From an uncultured Candidatus Saccharibacteria bacterium (GTDB lineage Bacteria; Patescibacteriota; Minisyncoccia; Phycocordibacterales; SIBU01): a stretch of 64,000 nucleotides of DNA. Within the stretch, counting starts at the first letter, position 1; each line of letters opens with the position of its first letter. A program made the translations under genes and the position numbers. Where the stretch lies: positions 1,653 through 65,652 of the forward strand of contig CAYSEN010000001.1 of the NCBI GenBank assembly GCA_964430335.1, read 5' to 3'. Of this stretch, positions 4,546 to 63,521 are shown piece after piece. The notes below the pieces were generated by a model. That model was not told where the DNA came from and did not search any database. It was given only the letters and a program-made list of their open reading frames with translations.

Positions 4546-4618
4546 GCGCCCATAGCTCAGTTGGTAGAGCACCTGCCTTTTAAGCAGAGGGTCGTAGGTT
4601 CGATTCCTACTGGGCGCA
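4546..4618 (+). tRNA. tRNA-Lys (anticodon UUU)
   Basis: Manual fold: acceptor gcgccca/tgggcgc, D-arm gctc-agttggta-gagc, anticodon stem cctgc/gcaga with loop cTTTTaa, T-arm gtagg-ttcgatt-cctac. No encoded CCA. Confidence 0.85.
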
Positions 4619-4626
4619 CAAGACGA

Positions 4627-4654
4627 AAAAATCCGGACTGCTCCGGATTTTTTC
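4627..4654 (+). terminator. rho-independent terminator after tRNA-Lys
   Basis: aaaaaatccgga-ctgc-tccggatttttt. Confidence 0.75.
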
Positions 4655-4659
4655 GTACC

Positions 4660-4705
4660 TGTGCGAGCCGGAGCCATGTTTCGCTACCAAGCGAAACGGG
4701 CGAGG
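4660..4705. repeat. 46-nt direct repeat, copy 1 (copy 2 at 4899-4944), hairpin-containing
   Basis: Identical tgtgcgagccggagccatgtttcgctaccaagcgaaacgggcgagg at both loci. Internal hairpin gtttcgc/gcgaaac. Confidence 0.8.
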
Positions 4706-4837
4706 CAAGGTCATGAAAATTTTCGAGTGGCGACGAGAAAATTATTCCTGACCACAGGCGAAATGACCAAGCAGGTCTAAATGACCTGCGTGTAGGAATC
4801 GAACGGCGGAGTATAAAATTTTCAGCAGAAAATTTTT

Positions 4838-4900
4838 CGAGCCGGTGACCAGACAAAACTTTTTGACGAAAAAGTTTTAGTCGAGGGAGATTTCCTATTG
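4838..4900 (+). ncRNA. conserved tRNA-trailing structured element (copy A; homolog at 62056-62120)
   Basis: cgagccGGTGACCAGACAA-[hairpin aaactttttg/caaaaagttt]-TAGTCGAGGgagatttCCtaTTG aligns with 62056-62120 cgaggcGGTGACCAGACAA-[hairpin atctacaaac/gtttgtagat]-TAGTCGAGGtcgaatCCctgTTG. Flanks are conserved and the hairpin base pairs covary. Confidence 0.5.
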
Positions 4901-4944
4901 TGCGAGCCGGAGCCATGTTTCGCTACCAAGCGAAACGGGCGAGG
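4899..4944. repeat. 46-nt direct repeat, copy 2
   Basis: Exact copy of 4660-4705. Confidence 0.8.
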
Positions 4945-5026
4945 AGGGGTCGCGAGTTTCGAGGCTGACGAGCCGAAGAAAACTTGTGACCACAAGAAAG
5001 TTCACTTAATGAACTATGTTTCTACC

Positions 5027-13816: not shown

Positions 13817-14197
13817 CTACACCAACGAGATCAGACAGACCTCTTTTTCCGTCATGTCACCCATACACCCGTAAGGGCAGTGGCCCTTTGGGGTGACATC
13901 GTAATCGTAGGAGATTCCAATGTTGCCGCAAATGCAGCAGCCTCCTCCTGGGACCCACCACACACCGGCGATGGGTTGAAAAACTCCCGTAGGAGTCAGA
14001 TAGGCCAGGAGTCCTTCGGATTCCTGGCCGCTATAGACAAGACGCTTTTTTGCAGCGTCTAGCACGGGGACACACTCTTCCCCCTGTGTTACTGAGCCGT
14101 CGGCCCAGTAACAGACGTAGCGAGGAATCTCGTTCCTCGCCTGAAGAGAACGAAGCAATGCTTCGATCTCTTTTTTTGATTTTGTTGAACTACTCAT
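13817..14197 (-). CDS. hypothetical Cys-rich protein (high-GC island)
   Basis: Cys cluster GGGCCICGN...HCPYGC. No family recognised. Confidence 0.35.
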   Translation of the reverse strand: MSSSTKSKKEIEALLRSLQARNEIPRYVCYWADGSVTQGEECVPVLDAAKKRLVYSGQESEGLLAYLTPTGVFQPIAGVWWVPGGGCCICGNIGISYDYDVTPKGHCPYGCMGDMTEKEVCLISLV

Positions 14198-14285
14198 AGA
14201 ATTTCATTTTCGAAAAATCAAAAACAAAATTCTATGAGTAGTGCTGAATACTGTCTTTAGATTTACCAACGTTTTGATAAACCCA

Positions 14286-14321
14286 ATAAACAGGAGAAGT
14301 TGTAACCGCAACTTCTCCAAA
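14286..14321. repeat. hairpin direct repeat copy 1 (ataaacaggagaagttgtaaccgcaacttctccaaa)
   Basis: 10-bp perfect stem ggagaagttg/caacttctcc. Near-identical copy at 16058-16093. The flanks (tgataa... and ...cgacaattt) are also shared. Confidence 0.75.
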
Positions 14322-14481
14322 CCTAACGACAATTTTTTCTCGGGATAGTCGTCCTTCCCATGACACTGCATGTCAGGCCACACCATTTAGAACGGTGGCA
14401 ACTTTCCAGCATTTTTCATGCCGGACTTTTACGCACTTCTGTTACGAAGGTGGTGCGATCCTTCGGATGTCTTTCCATCAG

Positions 14482-14805
14482 TCAGAGAGTGACGCGGATA
14501 GCCACAACCTCGTCGTCCGCACTGCATTTGAATATACCAAGTACCTGTTCAAGGCCGTTTGTGCGACGTTGAAAGTCTTGGTCATCATTTGCATTGTGAC
14601 GATTGGTGGCATTTTCATGCGCAGTCTTCGGGAAAAAACAAACGCAATAAACGCTGTCGTTCCAAAAACCTGAACATGAATCCTCATCACTCTCTCCCTC
14701 CAAAATCGCTTCTGGCACATAAGTGAAATCAAATGTACCGAAGGTATTTCGAGCAATCTTTATTGCCCGAATGATCTCAGAGGGATTAAGGCTAACTTCC
14801 TTCAT
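14482..14805 (-). CDS. hypothetical protein (107 aa from MKEV start)
   Basis: Strong SD GGGAGGAG upstream of the ATG (MKEVSLNP). The ORF-track N-terminal extension is probably not translated. Confidence 0.4.
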   Translation of the reverse strand: MKEVSLNPSEIIRAIKIARNTFGTFDFTYVPEAILEGESDEDSCSGFWNDSVYCVCFFPKTAHENATNRHNANDDQDFQRRTNGLEQVLGIFKCSADDEVVAIRVTL

Positions 14806-14923
14806 GGAAGCTCTCCTCCCACTTTTTTCACTGAAGTGGCAAACCGTCGAATGCAGTTCCGCCAAACAGCTCACGTTTTACGATAGGCAGTGAGGGCCTT
14901 TGAGAGACTGACGGTCTCTCAAA

Positions 14924-15853
14924 CTACTTGAGGTACTTCGTGAGCACCTCAACCACCCGCTCGACTGAAAGGGTCGAGCTGACACCCTGAGGGCTTCCGC
15001 CGATGGTCGGGGAACCTCCCCAACCCGGCTCGAGGGTCGCCAACTCGGCGAGCGCGGACTTGATGTCCGCGTACTTGCTGGCCTCGAAGGCGCAGATCGT
15101 GAACTTCCGGTGGGGCTCTCCCGCCCCGAGCCGAAAGCTCGGGTTGAGCGCCACCACGACCGGCGCCAGCGCATAGCCAACCGACGTGGCGGCGCGGTGC
15201 GTCGACTCGACGACCGCAATGCACCCGCCGGCACAAACCTCGTGCCGAATCGCTCCGCTCTCAAGAGCGGCGATCATGTCGGCGCGCTCGCGCTCAACCT
15301 GAGCGCGATAGTTGCCCGGCTCCTCGCCGGTCAACAACCACTTTTCCATAGTGGCGACCCGCTCCCCGAGTGGGATCTTGAAGTCCGCAACCGCCGCCGC
15401 AATCGCGGCGAGCGGTCGGGACGATTCGGCCCCTGCCGAGCTATCGTCCCACGGGCTGCCCCGGGTCGGGAGGGGTTTCGGGCCGGTGTACCCGCCACGT
15501 GCGAACTTGTCGGCGGCGGCAACCATACTGATCCGATCCATCGCGGACTCGAGACCTTCGCCCTTCGCCCGGATGTTGAAGATCGCCATCGCCCCAACAC
15601 TGTCGAGGTCGGCTCGCACAGTGACCAATGTCGCCCTCTCGGCCGGGATCTCTACCGTCAGCGCGGCCTCGATGGCCGAGCTGTTGGCGTCTCCTTCCGA
15701 TCCGTGCTGGGGGTCGAGGTTGTACACGCACCGAGCCGCAAGGCTCGGGACGGTCACCTCGATTCCGAACACCTGCCCGGACGAGAAAACCTTCTCGTTC
15801 GCCTCAGAGGCGGCCGGAAGATTGCGGGGATCCAGAATTGCAAAATGAAACAT
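14924..15853 (-). CDS. hypothetical protein (309 aa, about 65% GC) with C-terminal Gly-rich motif GWGGSPTIGGSPQG
   Basis: ATG (MFHFAILDP) preceded by AGGTGA. Many overlapping ORFs here are high-GC artefacts. No confident family. Confidence 0.45.
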   Translation of the reverse strand: MFHFAILDPRNLPAASEANEKVFSSGQVFGIEVTVPSLAARCVYNLDPQHGSEGDANSSAIEAALTVEIPAERATLVTVRADLDSVGAMAIFNIRAKGEGLESAMDRISMVAAADKFARGGYTGPKPLPTRGSPWDDSSAGAESSRPLAAIAAAVADFKIPLGERVATMEKWLLTGEEPGNYRAQVERERADMIAALESGAIRHEVCAGGCIAVVESTHRAATSVGYALAPVVVALNPSFRLGAGEPHRKFTICAFEASKYADIKSALAELATLEPGWGGSPTIGGSPQGVSSTLSVERVVEVLTKYLK

Positions 15854-16057
15854 TTTGTAATTCACCTATCTTCAAACAAAAGCAAAAAAATGTGACTATT
15901 TTGGTACACACTTATTTTGTTCTCACAAAACGCGGGTTTCTAAGTCGCGAATTGTGCCTGAATCGGATTTGTCGACAAGTGAGCGGGGGTCTAGACTGTC
16001 CCCATTCACCTGTCGAAACCAATTCGTGTCTACAGACTGGCAAAATTTGTCAGCCTG

Positions 16058-58133: not shown

Positions 58134-59072
58134 GTGCGACACGTTATGAAAAACGAAATTGAGAGCCTAAAAAGGCAATTTTTGGAATATATCGAGATAG
58201 AAAAGGGCCGGGCTATAAGAACCGTAGAGAATTATGACCATTATTTGACGGTTTTTATCAGACAGACCAAGGTCAGCGGTCCTAAAGATATAACCGACGA
58301 CAACGTCAGGGATTTTCGTATTTGGTTGAATAGACAATCAAACGGCAATAACCGCGCCACTGGGGACACTATGAAAAAGAAGACCCAGAACTATTATCTA
58401 ATAGCTCTGAGGAGTTTTTTAAAGTTTTTGGCCAAAAGAGGTGTCACTGCCCTGCCGGCGGATCATATCGAACTAGCAAAGGTTGGAGAAAGGCAAATAG
58501 ATGTAATATCTAAGGATGAATTAAAAAGATTGTTTGATGCTCCAAACAAGGAAAAGAATCTAGAAAGAAAGTTTCGCGATAAAGCAATCTTGGAAATGTT
58601 GTTTTCCACTGGTTTGCGTGTTTCTGAGCTTTGCTCATTAACTAATGATCTTGATTTACGTTTAGATGAATTTTCTGTTAGAGGAAAAGGAGGCAAGGTC
58701 AGGGTTGTTTTTTTGTCCGATGAAGCTAGGCACTCAGTAAAGGAGTATCTGCACCTACGTAAAGACATGTCCAATGCGCTTTTTGTTAAATTAAGTGATG
58801 AAACAGCTAAAAATGGTGATGTTACAGGTTTAACTCGGCGATCTGTAGAAAGAATTGTAAAAAGATACGCAACTATTGCTGGAATCTCAAAAAAAGTCAC
58901 CCCTCACGTCATTCGTCATGTGTTTGCTACGGATTTGCTTTCAAATGGTGCTGATATAAGGTCTGTGCAGGCCATGTTGGGCCACGCAAATATAGGCACA
59001 ACTCAGATTTACACTCATGTTACCGACAAACACCTGCGAGACGTGCACAAAAAATTTCACAATAAAAGCTAA
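58134..59072 (+). CDS. tyrosine site-specific recombinase (XerC/XerD family)
   Basis: C-terminal catalytic HVIRHVFATDLL...LGHANIGTTQIYTHV with the nucleophile Tyr. Confidence 0.85.
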   Translation: MRHVMKNEIESLKRQFLEYIEIEKGRAIRTVENYDHYLTVFIRQTKVSGPKDITDDNVRDFRIWLNRQSNGNNRATGDTMKKKTQNYYLIALRSFLKFLAKRGVTALPADHIELAKVGERQIDVISKDELKRLFDAPNKEKNLERKFRDKAILEMLFSTGLRVSELCSLTNDLDLRLDEFSVRGKGGKVRVVFLSDEARHSVKEYLHLRKDMSNALFVKLSDETAKNGDVTGLTRRSVERIVKRYATIAGISKKVTPHVIRHVFATDLLSNGADIRSVQAMLGHANIGTTQIYTHVTDKHLRDVHKKFHNKS

Positions 59073-59112
59073 AAAATGCCTTCGAAACTTCGTTTCGAAG
59101 GCATTTTTTGTT
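59071..59112 (+). terminator. rho-independent terminator after xer
   Basis: aaaaaatgccttcgaaac-ttcg-tttcgaaggcatttttt. Confidence 0.8.
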
Positions 59113-59118
59113 ACTATC

Positions 59119-59928
59119 ATGTGTATGAAAATAATTTCTTGGAATGTAAACGGCATACGGGCTGTTCACAAAAAAAATCTTTTTATTCCCTTTGTTGAGA
59201 AATATAAGCCAGATATTTTGTGTTTACAGGAGACAAAAGCTGAGCAGAACCAATCCTCTGTCGACCTCCCTGAATATGAGGAATATTGGAATTCAGCATT
59301 GAAAAAAGGTTATTCGGGAACTGCTATTTTTACAAACAACGTGCCAATTTCGGTTGCTAATGGTATACCTCAGAAAATCTCCAAAAAATTCAATTTGGGT
59401 CCAGACGAGTACGGTGACCCAACCACCGAGGGTCGCGTAATTATGGCTGAATACAAGGATTTTTTCGTTGTAACGGTTTATACTCCGAATGCCAAAGATG
59501 ATCTGACTCGAATTCCCCTACGTTACAAACATTGGGATCCAGCCTTTCTTGCCTACTGCAAGGAGTTAGAAAAAACTAAACCAGTAATTTTTTGCGGTGA
59601 CTTAAATGTGGCACACACACCAGATGATTTGGCCAGACCAAAAGAAAATGAAGGAATGAAAGGATTCACCAAAGAAGAACGAGAAGGTTTCGAGGCTTTC
59701 ATTCACGCTGGTTTTGTAGATACATTTAGAATTTCCCACAAAGGAAACGGCTTTTATACCTGGTGGTCTAATTGGTCAAATGCTAGAGGAAGAAACGTTG
59801 GTTGGAGAATAGATTATATTTTAGTTTCTCAATCGCTTAAAGATAAAGTCAAAAAGGCGGAAATACTCCCCGAAGTAATGGGCTCAGACCACTGCCCTGT
59901 CTACCTCGAAATCGATTTAAAATCGTAA
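59119..59928 (+). CDS. xth: exodeoxyribonuclease III (Xth/APE family)
   Basis: MKIISWNVNGIRA start region and C-terminal SDHCPV. The ORF-track upstream extension overlaps the terminator, so it is not used. Confidence 0.85.
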   Translation: MCMKIISWNVNGIRAVHKKNLFIPFVEKYKPDILCLQETKAEQNQSSVDLPEYEEYWNSALKKGYSGTAIFTNNVPISVANGIPQKISKKFNLGPDEYGDPTTEGRVIMAEYKDFFVVTVYTPNAKDDLTRIPLRYKHWDPAFLAYCKELEKTKPVIFCGDLNVAHTPDDLARPKENEGMKGFTKEEREGFEAFIHAGFVDTFRISHKGNGFYTWWSNWSNARGRNVGWRIDYILVSQSLKDKVKKAEILPEVMGSDHCPVYLEIDLKS

Positions 59929-60313: not shown

Positions 60314-61846
60314 CTAATTAACCTTATATTTTCCCCTTATTTTCTTTAAATTGTCATTTTCAACCTGATCCTTAGACTCCTTACCTTTTTCTGCTAACTT
60401 TATGAGTGTTTCATCTGAAACATCTTTAAGTTCTATAGCTCTTTGTTCGAGATACTCAGCGGTATTCAACTCCGGTTTTTCTAGCACTTCCTCTAAAAGA
60501 GCAAGCAAAATATGGCCAATTTTGGGTCCAGGGGTTACATGTGTAACCTCCATTAGTCTTCGGCCATCTATTTTAAGCATTCCCACTGTAACAGGGTCCC
60601 TCATTACTTCCTCAATCATTGCCTTATATTTTCTTAGTCTATAAGGATCCTCCTTAGGCCTTCCTGTTCCTATTCTGTCACATATACGTAGGTTCATTAG
60701 GTCCCAGACATTTTCCTTGCCCACCTTAGCAATCAACCTTCTGACCGCAGAAGGAGTGATTTGTTCGGTATCAGAGAAAAACATGTGCCATCTTATTAGT
60801 TTCACTACGGTTTCTATGGTTTTTTTAGGGAAAACAAGCCGATTTAAAATTTTCTCTGTTACACGTGAACCAACAACCTCATGGCCGTAGAAGGTCCATT
60901 GACTTGTTTCATGTGAAAAGCGTCTAGTTTCAGGCTTAGAAATATCGTGAAATAGGGCTGCTAGTCTTATTTCTAGGCTCCATTTCTTGTCCGCAGCGTG
61001 CTGTAAGGATCTTAGAAGGTGTTCCCAGACATCATATGAGTGAGCTTGGTTTTGCTCAACACCGATTGATTTCTCCAGTTCAAGGCTTATAAACTTAAGA
61101 ACACCCAATTCATGGCTTAGAATAAGGCCTGACATTGGATTGTCAGACATAATAATCCTGACGAACTCATCTCTAATCCTTTCATTAGCAATCTCTTTTA
61201 GCAGGTCTGCATTGTTTTTAATAGCTACCGAGGTTTCAGGGTCTATCTTAAAGCCTATTTCGGTCGAAATCCTAACGGCTCTTAGCATTCTTAGCGCATC
61301 CTCGTTAAATCTCTCGTGGGCATCCCCTACCGTTCTAATCAGCTTTGAAGATAAATCATCTTGTCCTTTATAAAGGTCAATCAATTGTCCTTTAACATCT
61401 GAATATATCTTTTCCGACTTAGGATCACTCGTATAATCTTCTATATCGAGCGCAATTGCGTTAATAGTGAAATCTCGACGCTTCAGGTCATCTTCTAGCT
61501 TGTTACTAAATTCAACGCTGTCAGGACGTCTTTTGTCGGAATAATCGGATTCTAGTCGGTAAGGTGTAATCTCAACAATCGAAAGTGTTTCATCTGAAAC
61601 GTTTTCGTTAACAACTCCGACTGTTCCGTACTTATTCTCATAGAATGTCTTTGGGAAGATTTTTATTATATCCTCTGGCCTTGCGTTGGTTGTGAAATCC
61701 CAATCTTTAGGTTTCCTTCCAATTAACAAGTCTCTTACGCAACCGCCGATCAAATAAGCTTCAAAGTTAGCCTTTTTCAGTGTATTTGATACATTTACAA
61801 TCTCGACTGGCAATTGAAAGTTTTGTGCTTGTTTTAAGGCTTTCAT
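60314..61846 (-). CDS. cca: CCA-adding tRNA nucleotidyltransferase with HD domain
   Basis: GGCVRDLLIGRKPKDWDFTT polymerase-beta head motif. HD domain residues later. Confidence 0.85.
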   Translation of the reverse strand: MKALKQAQNFQLPVEIVNVSNTLKKANFEAYLIGGCVRDLLIGRKPKDWDFTTNARPEDIIKIFPKTFYENKYGTVGVVNENVSDETLSIVEITPYRLESDYSDKRRPDSVEFSNKLEDDLKRRDFTINAIALDIEDYTSDPKSEKIYSDVKGQLIDLYKGQDDLSSKLIRTVGDAHERFNEDALRMLRAVRISTEIGFKIDPETSVAIKNNADLLKEIANERIRDEFVRIIMSDNPMSGLILSHELGVLKFISLELEKSIGVEQNQAHSYDVWEHLLRSLQHAADKKWSLEIRLAALFHDISKPETRRFSHETSQWTFYGHEVVGSRVTEKILNRLVFPKKTIETVVKLIRWHMFFSDTEQITPSAVRRLIAKVGKENVWDLMNLRICDRIGTGRPKEDPYRLRKYKAMIEEVMRDPVTVGMLKIDGRRLMEVTHVTPGPKIGHILLALLEEVLEKPELNTAEYLEQRAIELKDVSDETLIKLAEKGKESKDQVENDNLKKIRGKYKVN

Positions 61847-61904: not shown

Positions 61905-61976
61905 GCTCTCGTGGTGAAATGGATATCACAACGGTCTTCGGAACCGTCGTTGGGGGTTCGAATCCCTCCGGGAGCA
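61905..61976 (+). tRNA. tRNA-Arg (anticodon UCG)
   Basis: Acceptor gctctcg/cgggagc (one G-U), anticodon stem acggt/accgt with loop cTTCGga, T-arm ggggg-ttcgaat-ccctc. Overlapping ORF 61892-62095 is spurious. Confidence 0.8.
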
Positions 61977-62055
61977 CAATAAGCGAAGCTATATTGCTCC
62001 CGGAGGGATTCGAGCGCCGGAGCACACGAAGTCCAGACTCAGCAGAGTTTGGGTG

Positions 62056-62120
62056 CGAGGCGGTGACCAGACAATCTACAAACGGCGGTTTGTAGATTAG
62101 TCGAGGTCGAATCCCTGTTG
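62056..62120 (+). ncRNA. conserved tRNA-trailing structured element (copy B)
   Basis: See copy A at 4838-4900. Confidence 0.5.
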
Positions 62121-62191
62121 TTTACGATCTTTGAGTATCAAGTCTTCTCATTTGTATAAATTTAATTTCAAGCTATAATGTTTGAAATTAA

Positions 62192-62262
62192 GCGGGTATG
62201 GTTTAGTGGTAGAATGGTTCCTTGCCAAGGAACAGACGGGAGTTCGATTCTCCCTACCCGCA
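62192..62262 (+). tRNA. tRNA-Gly (anticodon GCC)
   Basis: Acceptor gcgggta/tacccgc, anticodon stem gttcc/ggaac with loop tTGCCaa, T-arm gggag-ttcgatt-ctccc. Confidence 0.85.
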
Positions 62263-62373
62263 CAACAGTAAGGGTAAGGAGGCATGTTATGCCTCCGTGG
62301 GAGAATCGAAGCCCGATTGAGCCGAGCTTCCTAGCGAGCCAATTGGGGTACTGAAACTGTAAGTTTAGATTCT

Positions 62374-62392
62374 CCCTACCCGCACATTGTAG
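62374..62392 (+). repeat. 19-nt direct duplicate of tRNA-Gly 3' end (gattctccctacccgcaca), followed by a terminator hairpin at 62396-62423
   Basis: Exact copy of 62244-62262. The sequence between contains an inverted T-arm copy gggagaatcgaa. Confidence 0.7.
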
Positions 62393-62773
62393 AAAAACCG
62401 CTTTTATAGCGGTTTTTCTGTTACGCACTGGGCTGTTTGACGAAACATGGTGCTTTTGTTTACAGCGTGCATAAAAGCAGTCATAAGAACGTGTTGAAAT
62501 AGGACATTTTTAAAAGACCTTAGATTTTGGACATTCGTCACTATGTGACCACTAAATATCTCTTTGATGACTCATAAGGTCCGGGATTATATTCATTGTT
62601 ATCAACAAAAAACCTCAAAACTGTGGATAACTATGTGAACTAGTGTATAAGAGACAGTTTACCGCCAAAAGAGACATTCATCTCTTTCTGCCTTTTAATG
62701 GCCTAAAATATGGCTATTACAGGTATTTGTCCGATTCCGTTATCAGTTTCACGTGAAAAAAATGTGATAAAGT

Positions 62774-63393: not shown

Positions 63394-63521
63394 CGAAACA
63401 CAATAGTATTTAATGGACAAATGACAGGACGAGCGAGGAGTATCCTTGGCCCAAAGGGCTAAGTTCAAGTTTATGTCTCATCGATCCGTAGAGAATATTA
63501 TTTCTAGAACAAGCAAACACA

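Follow-up and report, generated by a model that had tools for sequence, protein, structure and literature searches.

We analysed a 64-kb window, meaning the whole stretch of 64,000 nt, from contig CAYSEN010000001.1 of an uncultured Candidatus Saccharibacteria bacterium. Towards its 3' end lies a tRNA-Gly(GCC) gene, and behind it, on the same strand, a short unit (62265–62386) built from copies of the 3' half of this tRNA and a structured core. The locus neighbours a gene with a CCA-adding-enzyme domain on the minus strand (60314–61846). A tRNA-Arg(TCG) gene with an element of its own stands between the two. The coordinates of the features are collected in Table 1.

The 3' end of the tRNA-Gly is duplicated downstream, as the first-pass annotation had claimed. 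The window contains exactly two copies of the 19-mer GATTCTCCCTACCCGCACA, at 62246–62264 and 62368–62386. The second copy had been placed at 62374–62392, which is about 6 nt off, and the intervening DNA is 103 nt and not 112 nt long. In 100 shuffles no match to the 19-mer appeared, even with up to two mismatches. With one mismatch the repeat grows to 22 nt (TTCGATTCTCCCTACCCGCACA in the upstream copy, A(up), versus TTaGATT... in the downstream copy, A(down)), and the two 22-nt copies start 122 nt apart. The inverted copy of the T-arm (part of A') was also located correctly within the insert: GGGAGAATCGAA is the perfect reverse complement of the T-loop and the T-stem 3' strand (12/12). The same holds for the terminator hairpin said to follow directly, with its 12-bp perfect stem and T run. 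It was called terminator-like by our own scan, and the consensus scan did not list it. No plausible coding gene was found in the 103 nt between the 19-mers; the open reading frames (ORFs) listed there also cross the tRNA gene or the terminator.

Table 1. Features of the tRNA-Gly unit and of related units in the window
Feature	Position	Strand	Basis
tRNA-Gly(GCC), host tRNA	62192–62263	+	ARAGORN; Rfam tRNA model, 70.2 bits
T-loop of tRNA-Gly	62243–62249		
T-stem 3' strand of tRNA-Gly	62250–62254		
Acceptor 3' strand of tRNA-Gly	62255–62261		
Discriminator A of tRNA-Gly	62262		
A(up): tRNA 3' half, T54 to 2 nt past the discriminator; first copy of the direct repeat	62243–62264	+	
A' acceptor part, GGGTA; complement of TACCC in either A copy	62272–62276	+	Minimum-free-energy folds; family-wide layout
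Branch hairpin GGAGGCAT-GTT-ATGCCTCC within A', at the acceptor/T-stem boundary	62278–62296	+	Fold; same position in family alignments
A' T part, GGGAGAATCGAA (helix P1); final GAA is junction J1/2	62299–62310	+	
P2 (GCCCGATTG with CAATTGGGG) enclosing the P2a hairpin; tandem G-A/A-G positions	62311–62348	+	Fold, covariation, covariance model
Junction J2/3, TACTG	62349–62353	+	
P3 hairpin, AAACT-GTA-AGTTT	62354–62366	+	Covariation of helix 3
A(down): direct tRNA copy, T54 to 2 nt past the discriminator; 21/22 bases match, C56 to A	62365–62386	+	
Terminator-like hairpin AGAAAAACCGCT/AGCGGTTTTTCT, 12-bp perfect stem with T run at its end; directly 3' of the element	62391–62419	+	
Full-length match to covariance model R1	62296–62388	+	68.5 bits, E = 4.8e-16
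Element of another core class behind tRNA-Arg(TCG) (61905–61977)	61978–62125	+	
Two or three tandem related units behind tRNA-Lys(TTT) (4546–4619)	4620–5010	+	

The downstream sequences that were read share a layout: the tRNA, an optional spacer hairpin, A', the core and A(down). The core type of the Gly unit, a conserved three-way junction, we call class 2; in its units A(down) copies the tRNA from T54 to 1–2 nt beyond the discriminator. In the window a same-strand tRNA lies upstream, the inverted copy precedes the core and the direct copy follows it. The acceptor complement sits 5' of the branch hairpin across the family layout, and the loop of this hairpin in the window, ATGTTAT, is also found in loci L036, L133, L178 and L195. 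The A' T part of class 2 units ends in ATTCGAA. The core then runs in the order GCCYGATTG, AG, P2a hairpin, C, CAATYRGGR and TACTG, followed by the P3 stem of 5–6 bp with a GTA triloop. The window sequence matches GAA-GCCYGATTG-(P2a)-CAATYRGGR-TACTG at 62308–62353, with P3 at 62354–66, and its P2a hairpin is CGAGC-TTCCTA-GCGAG (~62323–62338). This hairpin is the stretch that had been described as gagccg-rich and M1-like. A GAGC...GCGA module is indeed shared, but the likeness ends there. The module, a recurrent tandem G-A arrangement, presumably resembles protein-binding K-turn-type motifs, and we take this as a resemblance only. Of 120 family members, 108 have the GTA triloop. P3 overlaps A(down): the two T that end its 3' strand also serve as T54 and T55 of that copy.

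Other copies were collected with the pattern GAAGCCYGATTG-N16-46-CAATYRGGRTACTG. The invariance of TACTG across this set is uninformative because TACTG was fixed in the search pattern. Covariance model R1 was seeded by metagenome copies only, with the window sequence excluded, and the match listed in Table 1 was its sole hit in the window.

On 57 copies, RNAalifold predicted P1, P2/P2a and P3, and 18 of the 28 pairs had compensatory changes on both sides. Paired cells amounted to 95.0%, compared with 77.6% in shuffles. The covariation score was 0.475 versus 0.155 in shuffles, and none of 500 shuffles reached 0.475. When the partners were slid by 1–3 columns as a control, the score was at most 0.11. 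Helix 2 was 95% paired with nine pairs changed on both sides, and helix 3 was 99% paired with changes on both sides in all of its pairs (5/5). One P2 pair was G-U in 40 of the 57 sequences. Since G-U would read as an A-C mismatch on the opposite strand, the fold belongs to the tRNA strand. The window unit alone had a fold z-score of −7.5. The comparative evidence shows a core that, as predicted from the alignment, folds as an RNA on the tRNA strand under structural selection.

The core pattern matched at least 120 metagenome stretches, so the search for further copies that had been proposed at the outset returned many. Among 131 collected copies, 87 lay within 250 nt downstream of a same-strand tRNA, and 36 different anticodons were represented. 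The other copies were found at contig ends, in tandem arrays, behind tRNAs that ARAGORN misses, or with no recognisable tRNA. The missed tRNAs probably include intron-containing tRNA-Asn genes as in PMC13011429. In 80 orthologous loci, R1 gave 17 hits with E < 0.01, and every one that was checked sits behind a tRNA. The class 2 core pattern was found in 0 viral contigs, as were the Arg/Lys-type patterns. A single viral match of the class 1 pattern was inside a GC-rich coding region with no tRNA, and we discarded it as chance. No Rfam 15 family matched the element at gathering thresholds in the window and in good members; only tRNA passed, and nothing credible appeared at E up to 10. The families covered include self-cleaving ribozymes, group I and II introns, tmRNA, Y RNA and RT-associated motifs. 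A description of such a tRNA-tailing family was not found in the literature, where the exact core strings were searched as well. The ~100–200-nt elements directly 3' of tRNA genes in Patescibacteria thus apparently form an undescribed family.

Some copies without an upstream tRNA have a feature of their own. In L085:2545–2800, L084, L097 and L183, class 2 units with no tRNA before them are preceded by a conserved 26-nt sequence, GTCGAACCAACTCCATCTCGGCGCAC, which looks like the 3' half of a tRNA that has diverged; in L085 the start of a divergent protein gene adjoins it.

No recurrent partner protein was found among 552 clustered ORFs within 3 kb of the metagenome copies. The commonest neighbour families reach at most 9 of ~115 loci (at the top a DUF5673-like protein, YraN and TsaD), and their recurrence reflects synteny. 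Transposases, integrases and reverse transcriptases did not recur near copies in the neighbour clusters checked. Large serine recombinases were near only 3 of ~115 loci. In one of these (L197:6004–7740) the recombinase gene lies immediately 3' of a class 2 unit behind tRNA-Gln; two other loci also have such a gene. Integrated elements may have some of the units at their edge.

These neighbours bear on the first interpretation of the locus, a remnant of classical integration into the tRNA 3' end. It would be the att pair of an integrase-mediated island or prophage that had entered the T-loop region of tRNA-Gly and was then almost wholly deleted. Integrative elements that target tRNA genes leave a partial tRNA copy, span 9–23 kb and carry recombinases (PMC9897764). 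The direct repeat does run from the T-loop to the tRNA 3' end, where such elements leave the partial copy as attR (PMC9897764), and a tyrosine recombinase gene lies ~3 kb away (58134–59072). As with prophages, integrative and conjugative elements and genomic islands, an intact tRNA is kept and presence is polymorphic. However, no recombinase, cargo or decayed island DNA lies between the repeats. The insert measures 103 nt instead of kilobases and contains no integrase or other ORF. The recombinase gene is outside the repeats and looks Xer-type, no integrase recurs near family members, and the class 2 pattern is missing from viral contigs. Moreover, the insert is a conserved, covarying RNA structure at at least 120 other loci. 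The units carry an extra inverted copy of the tRNA 3' half, and one core stands behind at least 36 tRNA species. We consider the att-remnant explanation highly improbable and have given up the remnant claim.

Small repetitive elements such as miniature inverted-repeat transposable elements (MITEs), Correia, ERIC, RPE and REP/REPIN are more alike in scale. They too are small, non-coding and present in many copies, with inverted-repeat arms, a stable transcript fold and no transposase of their own. In contrast to them, the units lack a fixed terminal inverted repeat: their arms are copies of the neighbouring tRNA and change from one host tRNA to the next. The repeat is ~21 nt of tRNA sequence, and the units are tRNA-proximal and co-oriented. 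No related autonomous insertion sequence was found for the units, and no transposase family recurs.

The arms followed the local tRNA. The median alignment score of the direct copy against the local tRNA was 30, compared with 12 for mismatched loci. For the inverted copy the values were 23 and 13. The 21-nt direct copy was perfect in ~25 of 87 cases, and the inverted copy varied along with the tRNA T-stem (e.g. CTCCC, CCCGG, CTCGG). The repeat edges were also placed regularly: the left edge was at T54 or one base earlier in 24 of 47 cases, and the right edge was 0 to +4 nt from the called tRNA end in 36 of 47. Three long exceptions in repeat length were whole-unit tandem duplications. In many members A(down) has degenerated. 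At positions where the two A copies disagree, A' sided with the upstream tRNA 107 times and with A(down) 2 times, an asymmetry that is inflated because indels in the downstream copies shift the register. In arrays, each A' matches the A directly preceding it (L130). Behind 384 tRNAs, core-less hairpins, in which A' is directly followed by A, were not found; the gap between A' and A was always 60–180 nt.

The direction of the arm copies can be read from tRNA stem positions that are not Watson-Crick pairs. Of 31 informative positions of this kind, 24 had the complement of the 3' strand in A' and 3 had the base of the 5' strand. This bears on a further possibility, namely that the unit is a decayed tandem duplicate of tRNA-Gly, a pseudo-tRNA with collapsed D and anticodon arms and an expanded T-loop. 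The unit can be drawn in this way, with an acceptor-like stem, one hairpin and a T-like stem. Yet A' is the complement of the 3' strand and not a copy of the 5' strand, and it holds a T-loop complement, which is found in no tRNA 5' strand. The same core recurs behind 36 tRNA species. ARAGORN and the Rfam tRNA model called nothing, and no cloverleaf, at 62265–62390. A pseudo-tRNA origin is scarcely credible to us. The units share features with tRNA mimics (the tRNA-like domain of transfer-messenger RNA, viral tRNA-like structures, mascRNA, bacterial Y RNA) and with engineered tRNA scaffolds, in which a foreign domain also sits in a tRNA-shaped frame. As in these, RNase P, RNase Z or the CCA-adding enzyme could be recruited by the acceptor/T coaxial helix with its tRNA-like 3' end. 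They differ from the mimics in that the T-loop of the unit is base-paired and opened into a three-way junction, and there is no D arm. The unit copies the neighbouring tRNA and has no fixed identity, and the Rfam models of the mimics do not match.

A' has no CCA complement; its complementarity runs on into the trailer or the spacer hairpin. CCA was encoded in 7 of 43 downstream copies and in 61 of 404 tRNA genes generally, so there was no enrichment. This argues against a retro-origin from mature tRNA, which we rejected. The 'CA' after the discriminator falls within the duplicated copy. Across all loci, only 15% of the 404 tRNA genes encode CCA, and the discriminator is mostly followed by C-A-N (CAA 151, CAG 59, CAT 35, CAC 26). 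The perfect complementarity of A' to ~20 nt at the tRNA 3' end recalls the primer-binding sites of retroviral and long terminal repeat elements, and a tRF-3-type fragment has its counterpart in the segment that begins at T54 and runs to the 3' end. However, primer-binding sites differ from A' in the points just given, and no reverse transcriptase gene was seen in the neighbour clusters checked.

A strict test for a seamless Watson-Crick palindrome through the spacer was passed in 5 of 31 cases. Many more of the listed spacers look near-palindromic when G-T pairs are allowed, for which no count was made. Because related spacer hairpin sequences recur behind different tRNAs, the spacer seems to be part of the unit.

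The window unit is probably transcribed as a 3' trailer of tRNA-Gly, because no terminator-like hairpin was found between the two and one stands after the unit. A TATAAT box was spotted by eye 12 nt upstream of tRNA-Gly; the consensus scan listed no promoter there. A terminator-like hairpin followed A(down) in 12 of 82 members, with a background of ~2% per 100 nt.

In the minimum-free-energy fold of tRNA-Gly and unit together (62192–62425), the tRNA 5' half pairs with A(down), and A(up):A' forms an insert at 53/54. For tRNA-Arg and its element, a 26-bp A:A' hairpin forms. In these predictions A' prefers the 3' half of its own tRNA. The fold of the Gly locus would suit an intron-like insertion in the T-loop. 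On this reading the true gene would consist of tRNA positions 1–53 joined to A(down), with everything from A(up) to the end of the core either excised or tolerated. Introns in tRNA genes are abundant in Patescibacteria (PMC13011429), and they resemble the units in phylum, in their tRNA gene hosts and in being structured RNA mostly without homing endonuclease genes. But the introns lie in the anticodon loop at 35/36 and are self-splicing group I ribozymes, whereas the unit is far smaller, lies after or at the 3' half and matches no group I intron model. The upstream copy is already a complete tRNA that needs no splicing, and A(down) is degenerate in many members. For the copies without an upstream tRNA, upstream segments joined to A(down) were not called as tRNA in any case. 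An intron-like insertion is therefore very unlikely in our view.

We then compared orthologous loci. The relatives of the CCA-enzyme among GTDB species representatives are all Patescibacteria (Paceibacteria, Parcubacteria, Taylorbacteria and similar), with 61–69% identity. The gene order CCA-enzyme gene, tRNA-Arg(TCG), tRNA-Gly(GCC), tRNA-Pro is broadly conserved. The spacing from Arg to Gly across these loci ranged from 1 to 1705 nt. An inverted T-loop/T-stem copy lay within 350 nt downstream in 18 of 59 tRNA-Gly(GCC) genes, where ~0.8 would be expected by chance according to our estimate. The first-pass annotation had stated that its proposal would fall if all orthologous loci carried the same arrangement without size polymorphism. 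Size polymorphism is present, and the outcome of the comparison thus favours a dynamic element.

The orientation of tRNA-Arg, tRNA-Gly or both was flipped in many orthologous loci (L002, L006, L017, L019, L026, L028, L040, L041, L044). Small inversions thus seem to be frequent upstream of the CCA-enzyme gene (L002–L081). In addition, an ORF of ~225–240 aa recurs beside tRNAs or elements in L013, L015, L070, L027 (tRNA-Arg to tRNA-Gly), L130:810–1538 and five other metagenome loci. Its product carries a helix-turn-helix at the N terminus and a LAGLIDADG-like motif (YWGEGDK), and Pfam gave only weak helix-turn-helix hits. It may be a free-standing gene of the homing-endonuclease type.

Units behind different isoacceptors were in part nearly identical in their cores. 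In 46 such pairs the variable P2a interior was 85–97% identical and the arms were different; the identity was up to 97% for His versus Ser and for Arg versus Ser. Retargeting is therefore recent relative to core divergence. Whole-unit tandem duplications were found in L184, L192 and L119, and arrays in L130, L101, L187 and L115. Arrays that mix core classes also occur. Near-identical cores have thus been re-associated with different tRNAs, their presence is polymorphic and they form tandem arrays.

The architecture fits no known mobile element or non-coding RNA family, and the feature falls outside every family tested. We read 62265–62386 as a copy of an uncatalogued Patescibacteria family, a structured RNA cassette that tRNA genes gain and lose and that is retargeted from one of them to another, and give this reading a probability of roughly 60%. 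In such a cassette, A' would pair with A(down) into a free-standing minihelix, similar to the acceptor/T stack of a tRNA, that carries the core. Alternatively, the tRNA itself would supply the 3' half with which A' pairs, and its 5' half would then be free to pair with A(down). The host presumably pays little, since it never loses the intact tRNA gene. The flanking A repeats would permit precise loss, duplication and re-insertion through recombination at tRNA genes. Homology to conserved tRNA sequence would let DNA from relatives recombine in once it is taken up. The arms could be re-templated by repair or gene conversion within the A:A' hairpin, by a templated copying step or by selection. 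For the core, protein binding or catalysis are candidate roles.

Several points weigh against the cassette. No transposase, integrase or reverse transcriptase recurs nearby that would point to an insertion mechanism. In 28 copies neither an upstream tRNA nor an upstream A could be recognised, so the link to a tRNA is not absolute. The collection pattern itself accounts for some of the sequence conservation seen among members, and the asymmetry of the arms is inflated in the way described above. In a crude window-based test, pairing of the A' acceptor part with A(down) exceeded the control only slightly. Co-transcription and a function as RNA are predictions from sequence. A terminator-like hairpin between tRNA and A' in 28 of 82 members could limit read-through.

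The main rival is a host-encoded trailer that acts in cis, is inherited vertically and does not move. In it, A' would pair with the 3' half and the trailer of the precursor and control maturation, decay or termination, and A(down) would be a by-product that can be dispensed with. A' keeps perfect complementarity to the upstream tRNA even where A(down) has decayed. This complementarity enters the trailer or spacer hairpin and not the CCA end, and the partner of A' would therefore be the unprocessed transcript in cis. The A:A' pairing is thermodynamically favoured, and the core is under structural selection. Most of the evidence is thus shared with the cassette. However, the units are patchy among related species, with about one third of Gly(GCC) loci having one, and the spacing is polymorphic. 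Near-identical cores stand behind different isoacceptors, tandem arrays occur, some of them with mixed core classes, and some copies have no upstream tRNA. Patchiness, arrays and retargeting fit a host trailer less well than a spreading cassette, and we regard the trailer as an unlikely but serious explanation.

A bolder reading concerns function. The units could be programmable, tRNA-specific guide RNAs, in which the bipartite A' captures the 3' half of the cognate tRNA or pre-tRNA through a T-loop toehold and the core is a ribozyme or a protein-recruiting module. The core would then act on the tRNA by cleavage, by exchange or repair of the 3' half, or in quality control, and the guide would be re-templated at each move to a new tRNA. 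If true, this would be an RNA-guided system against tRNAs that has no protein gene and is spread over the tRNA genes of Patescibacteria. We put it forward as a doubtful proposal.

If the cassette is confirmed, it represents a new and abundant class of structured RNA elements in a phylum of minimal genomes, found behind 36 anticodons in the collected copies. In it, arms rewritten for each host tRNA go together with a fixed, covarying core. The family would account for many partial tRNA copies and long palindromes beside tRNA genes in Patescibacteria assemblies, and it gives covariance-model seeds for annotation.

The insert had also been suggested to be a miniature element related to those after tRNA-Lys and tRNA-Arg in the window. 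This holds for the arms: in the Arg and Lys trailers, as in that of Gly, the 3' half of the tRNA recurs inverted, a structured and G-rich core comes next, and a direct copy, full or partial, follows. It does not hold for the core, as the Gly core is a class apart from both. In the Arg element, the inverted copy of the tRNA 3' half is 29 nt long (61990–62018) and 86% complementary. The core reads GCCGGAG...GAGGCGGTGACCAGACAA-hairpin-TTAGTCGAGG, a partial direct copy, TCGAATCCCT, lies at 62107–62116, and the fold z-score was −5.2. The Lys units contain an inverted T-arm copy near 4793–4803, a GGTGACCAGACAA motif at 4844–4856, and GTGCGAGCCGGAGCC repeated at 4661 and 4900. Two Rfam matches in the Lys units were set aside as probably due to chance. 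The match to RT-11 (4769–4889) had 20 bits against a threshold of 143.5 and an unconvincing alignment, and the match to Hammerhead_II (4928–4981) had 17.6 bits against a threshold of 37. At least two further core types occur in the same frame: class 1, with the core GCCGGAGC...GCGAGGCGGGGTCGC...GTGACC, and class 3, in L027, L040, L045, L065 and L080. The trailer of tRNA-Pro (63395–63520) contains GACGAGCGAGG and a partial T-arm-like AGTTCAAG at 63462–63469. It may be a decayed unit or a chance resemblance.

A few other features of the window were recorded. Downstream of the element, at 62599–62630, there is one perfect DnaA box, TGTGGATAA (62622–62630), and one with a single mismatch, without a cluster. 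Similar TGTGGATAA strings lie downstream of tRNA-Gly in L065, L056 and L014. The tyrosine recombinase ORF mentioned above (Xer/phage-integrase type, 58134–59072) overlaps the start of an ORF of the endonuclease/exonuclease/phosphatase family (59017–59928). The region 14001–16000 had a GC content of 0.54, compared with ~0.39 elsewhere in the window, and may be foreign DNA.

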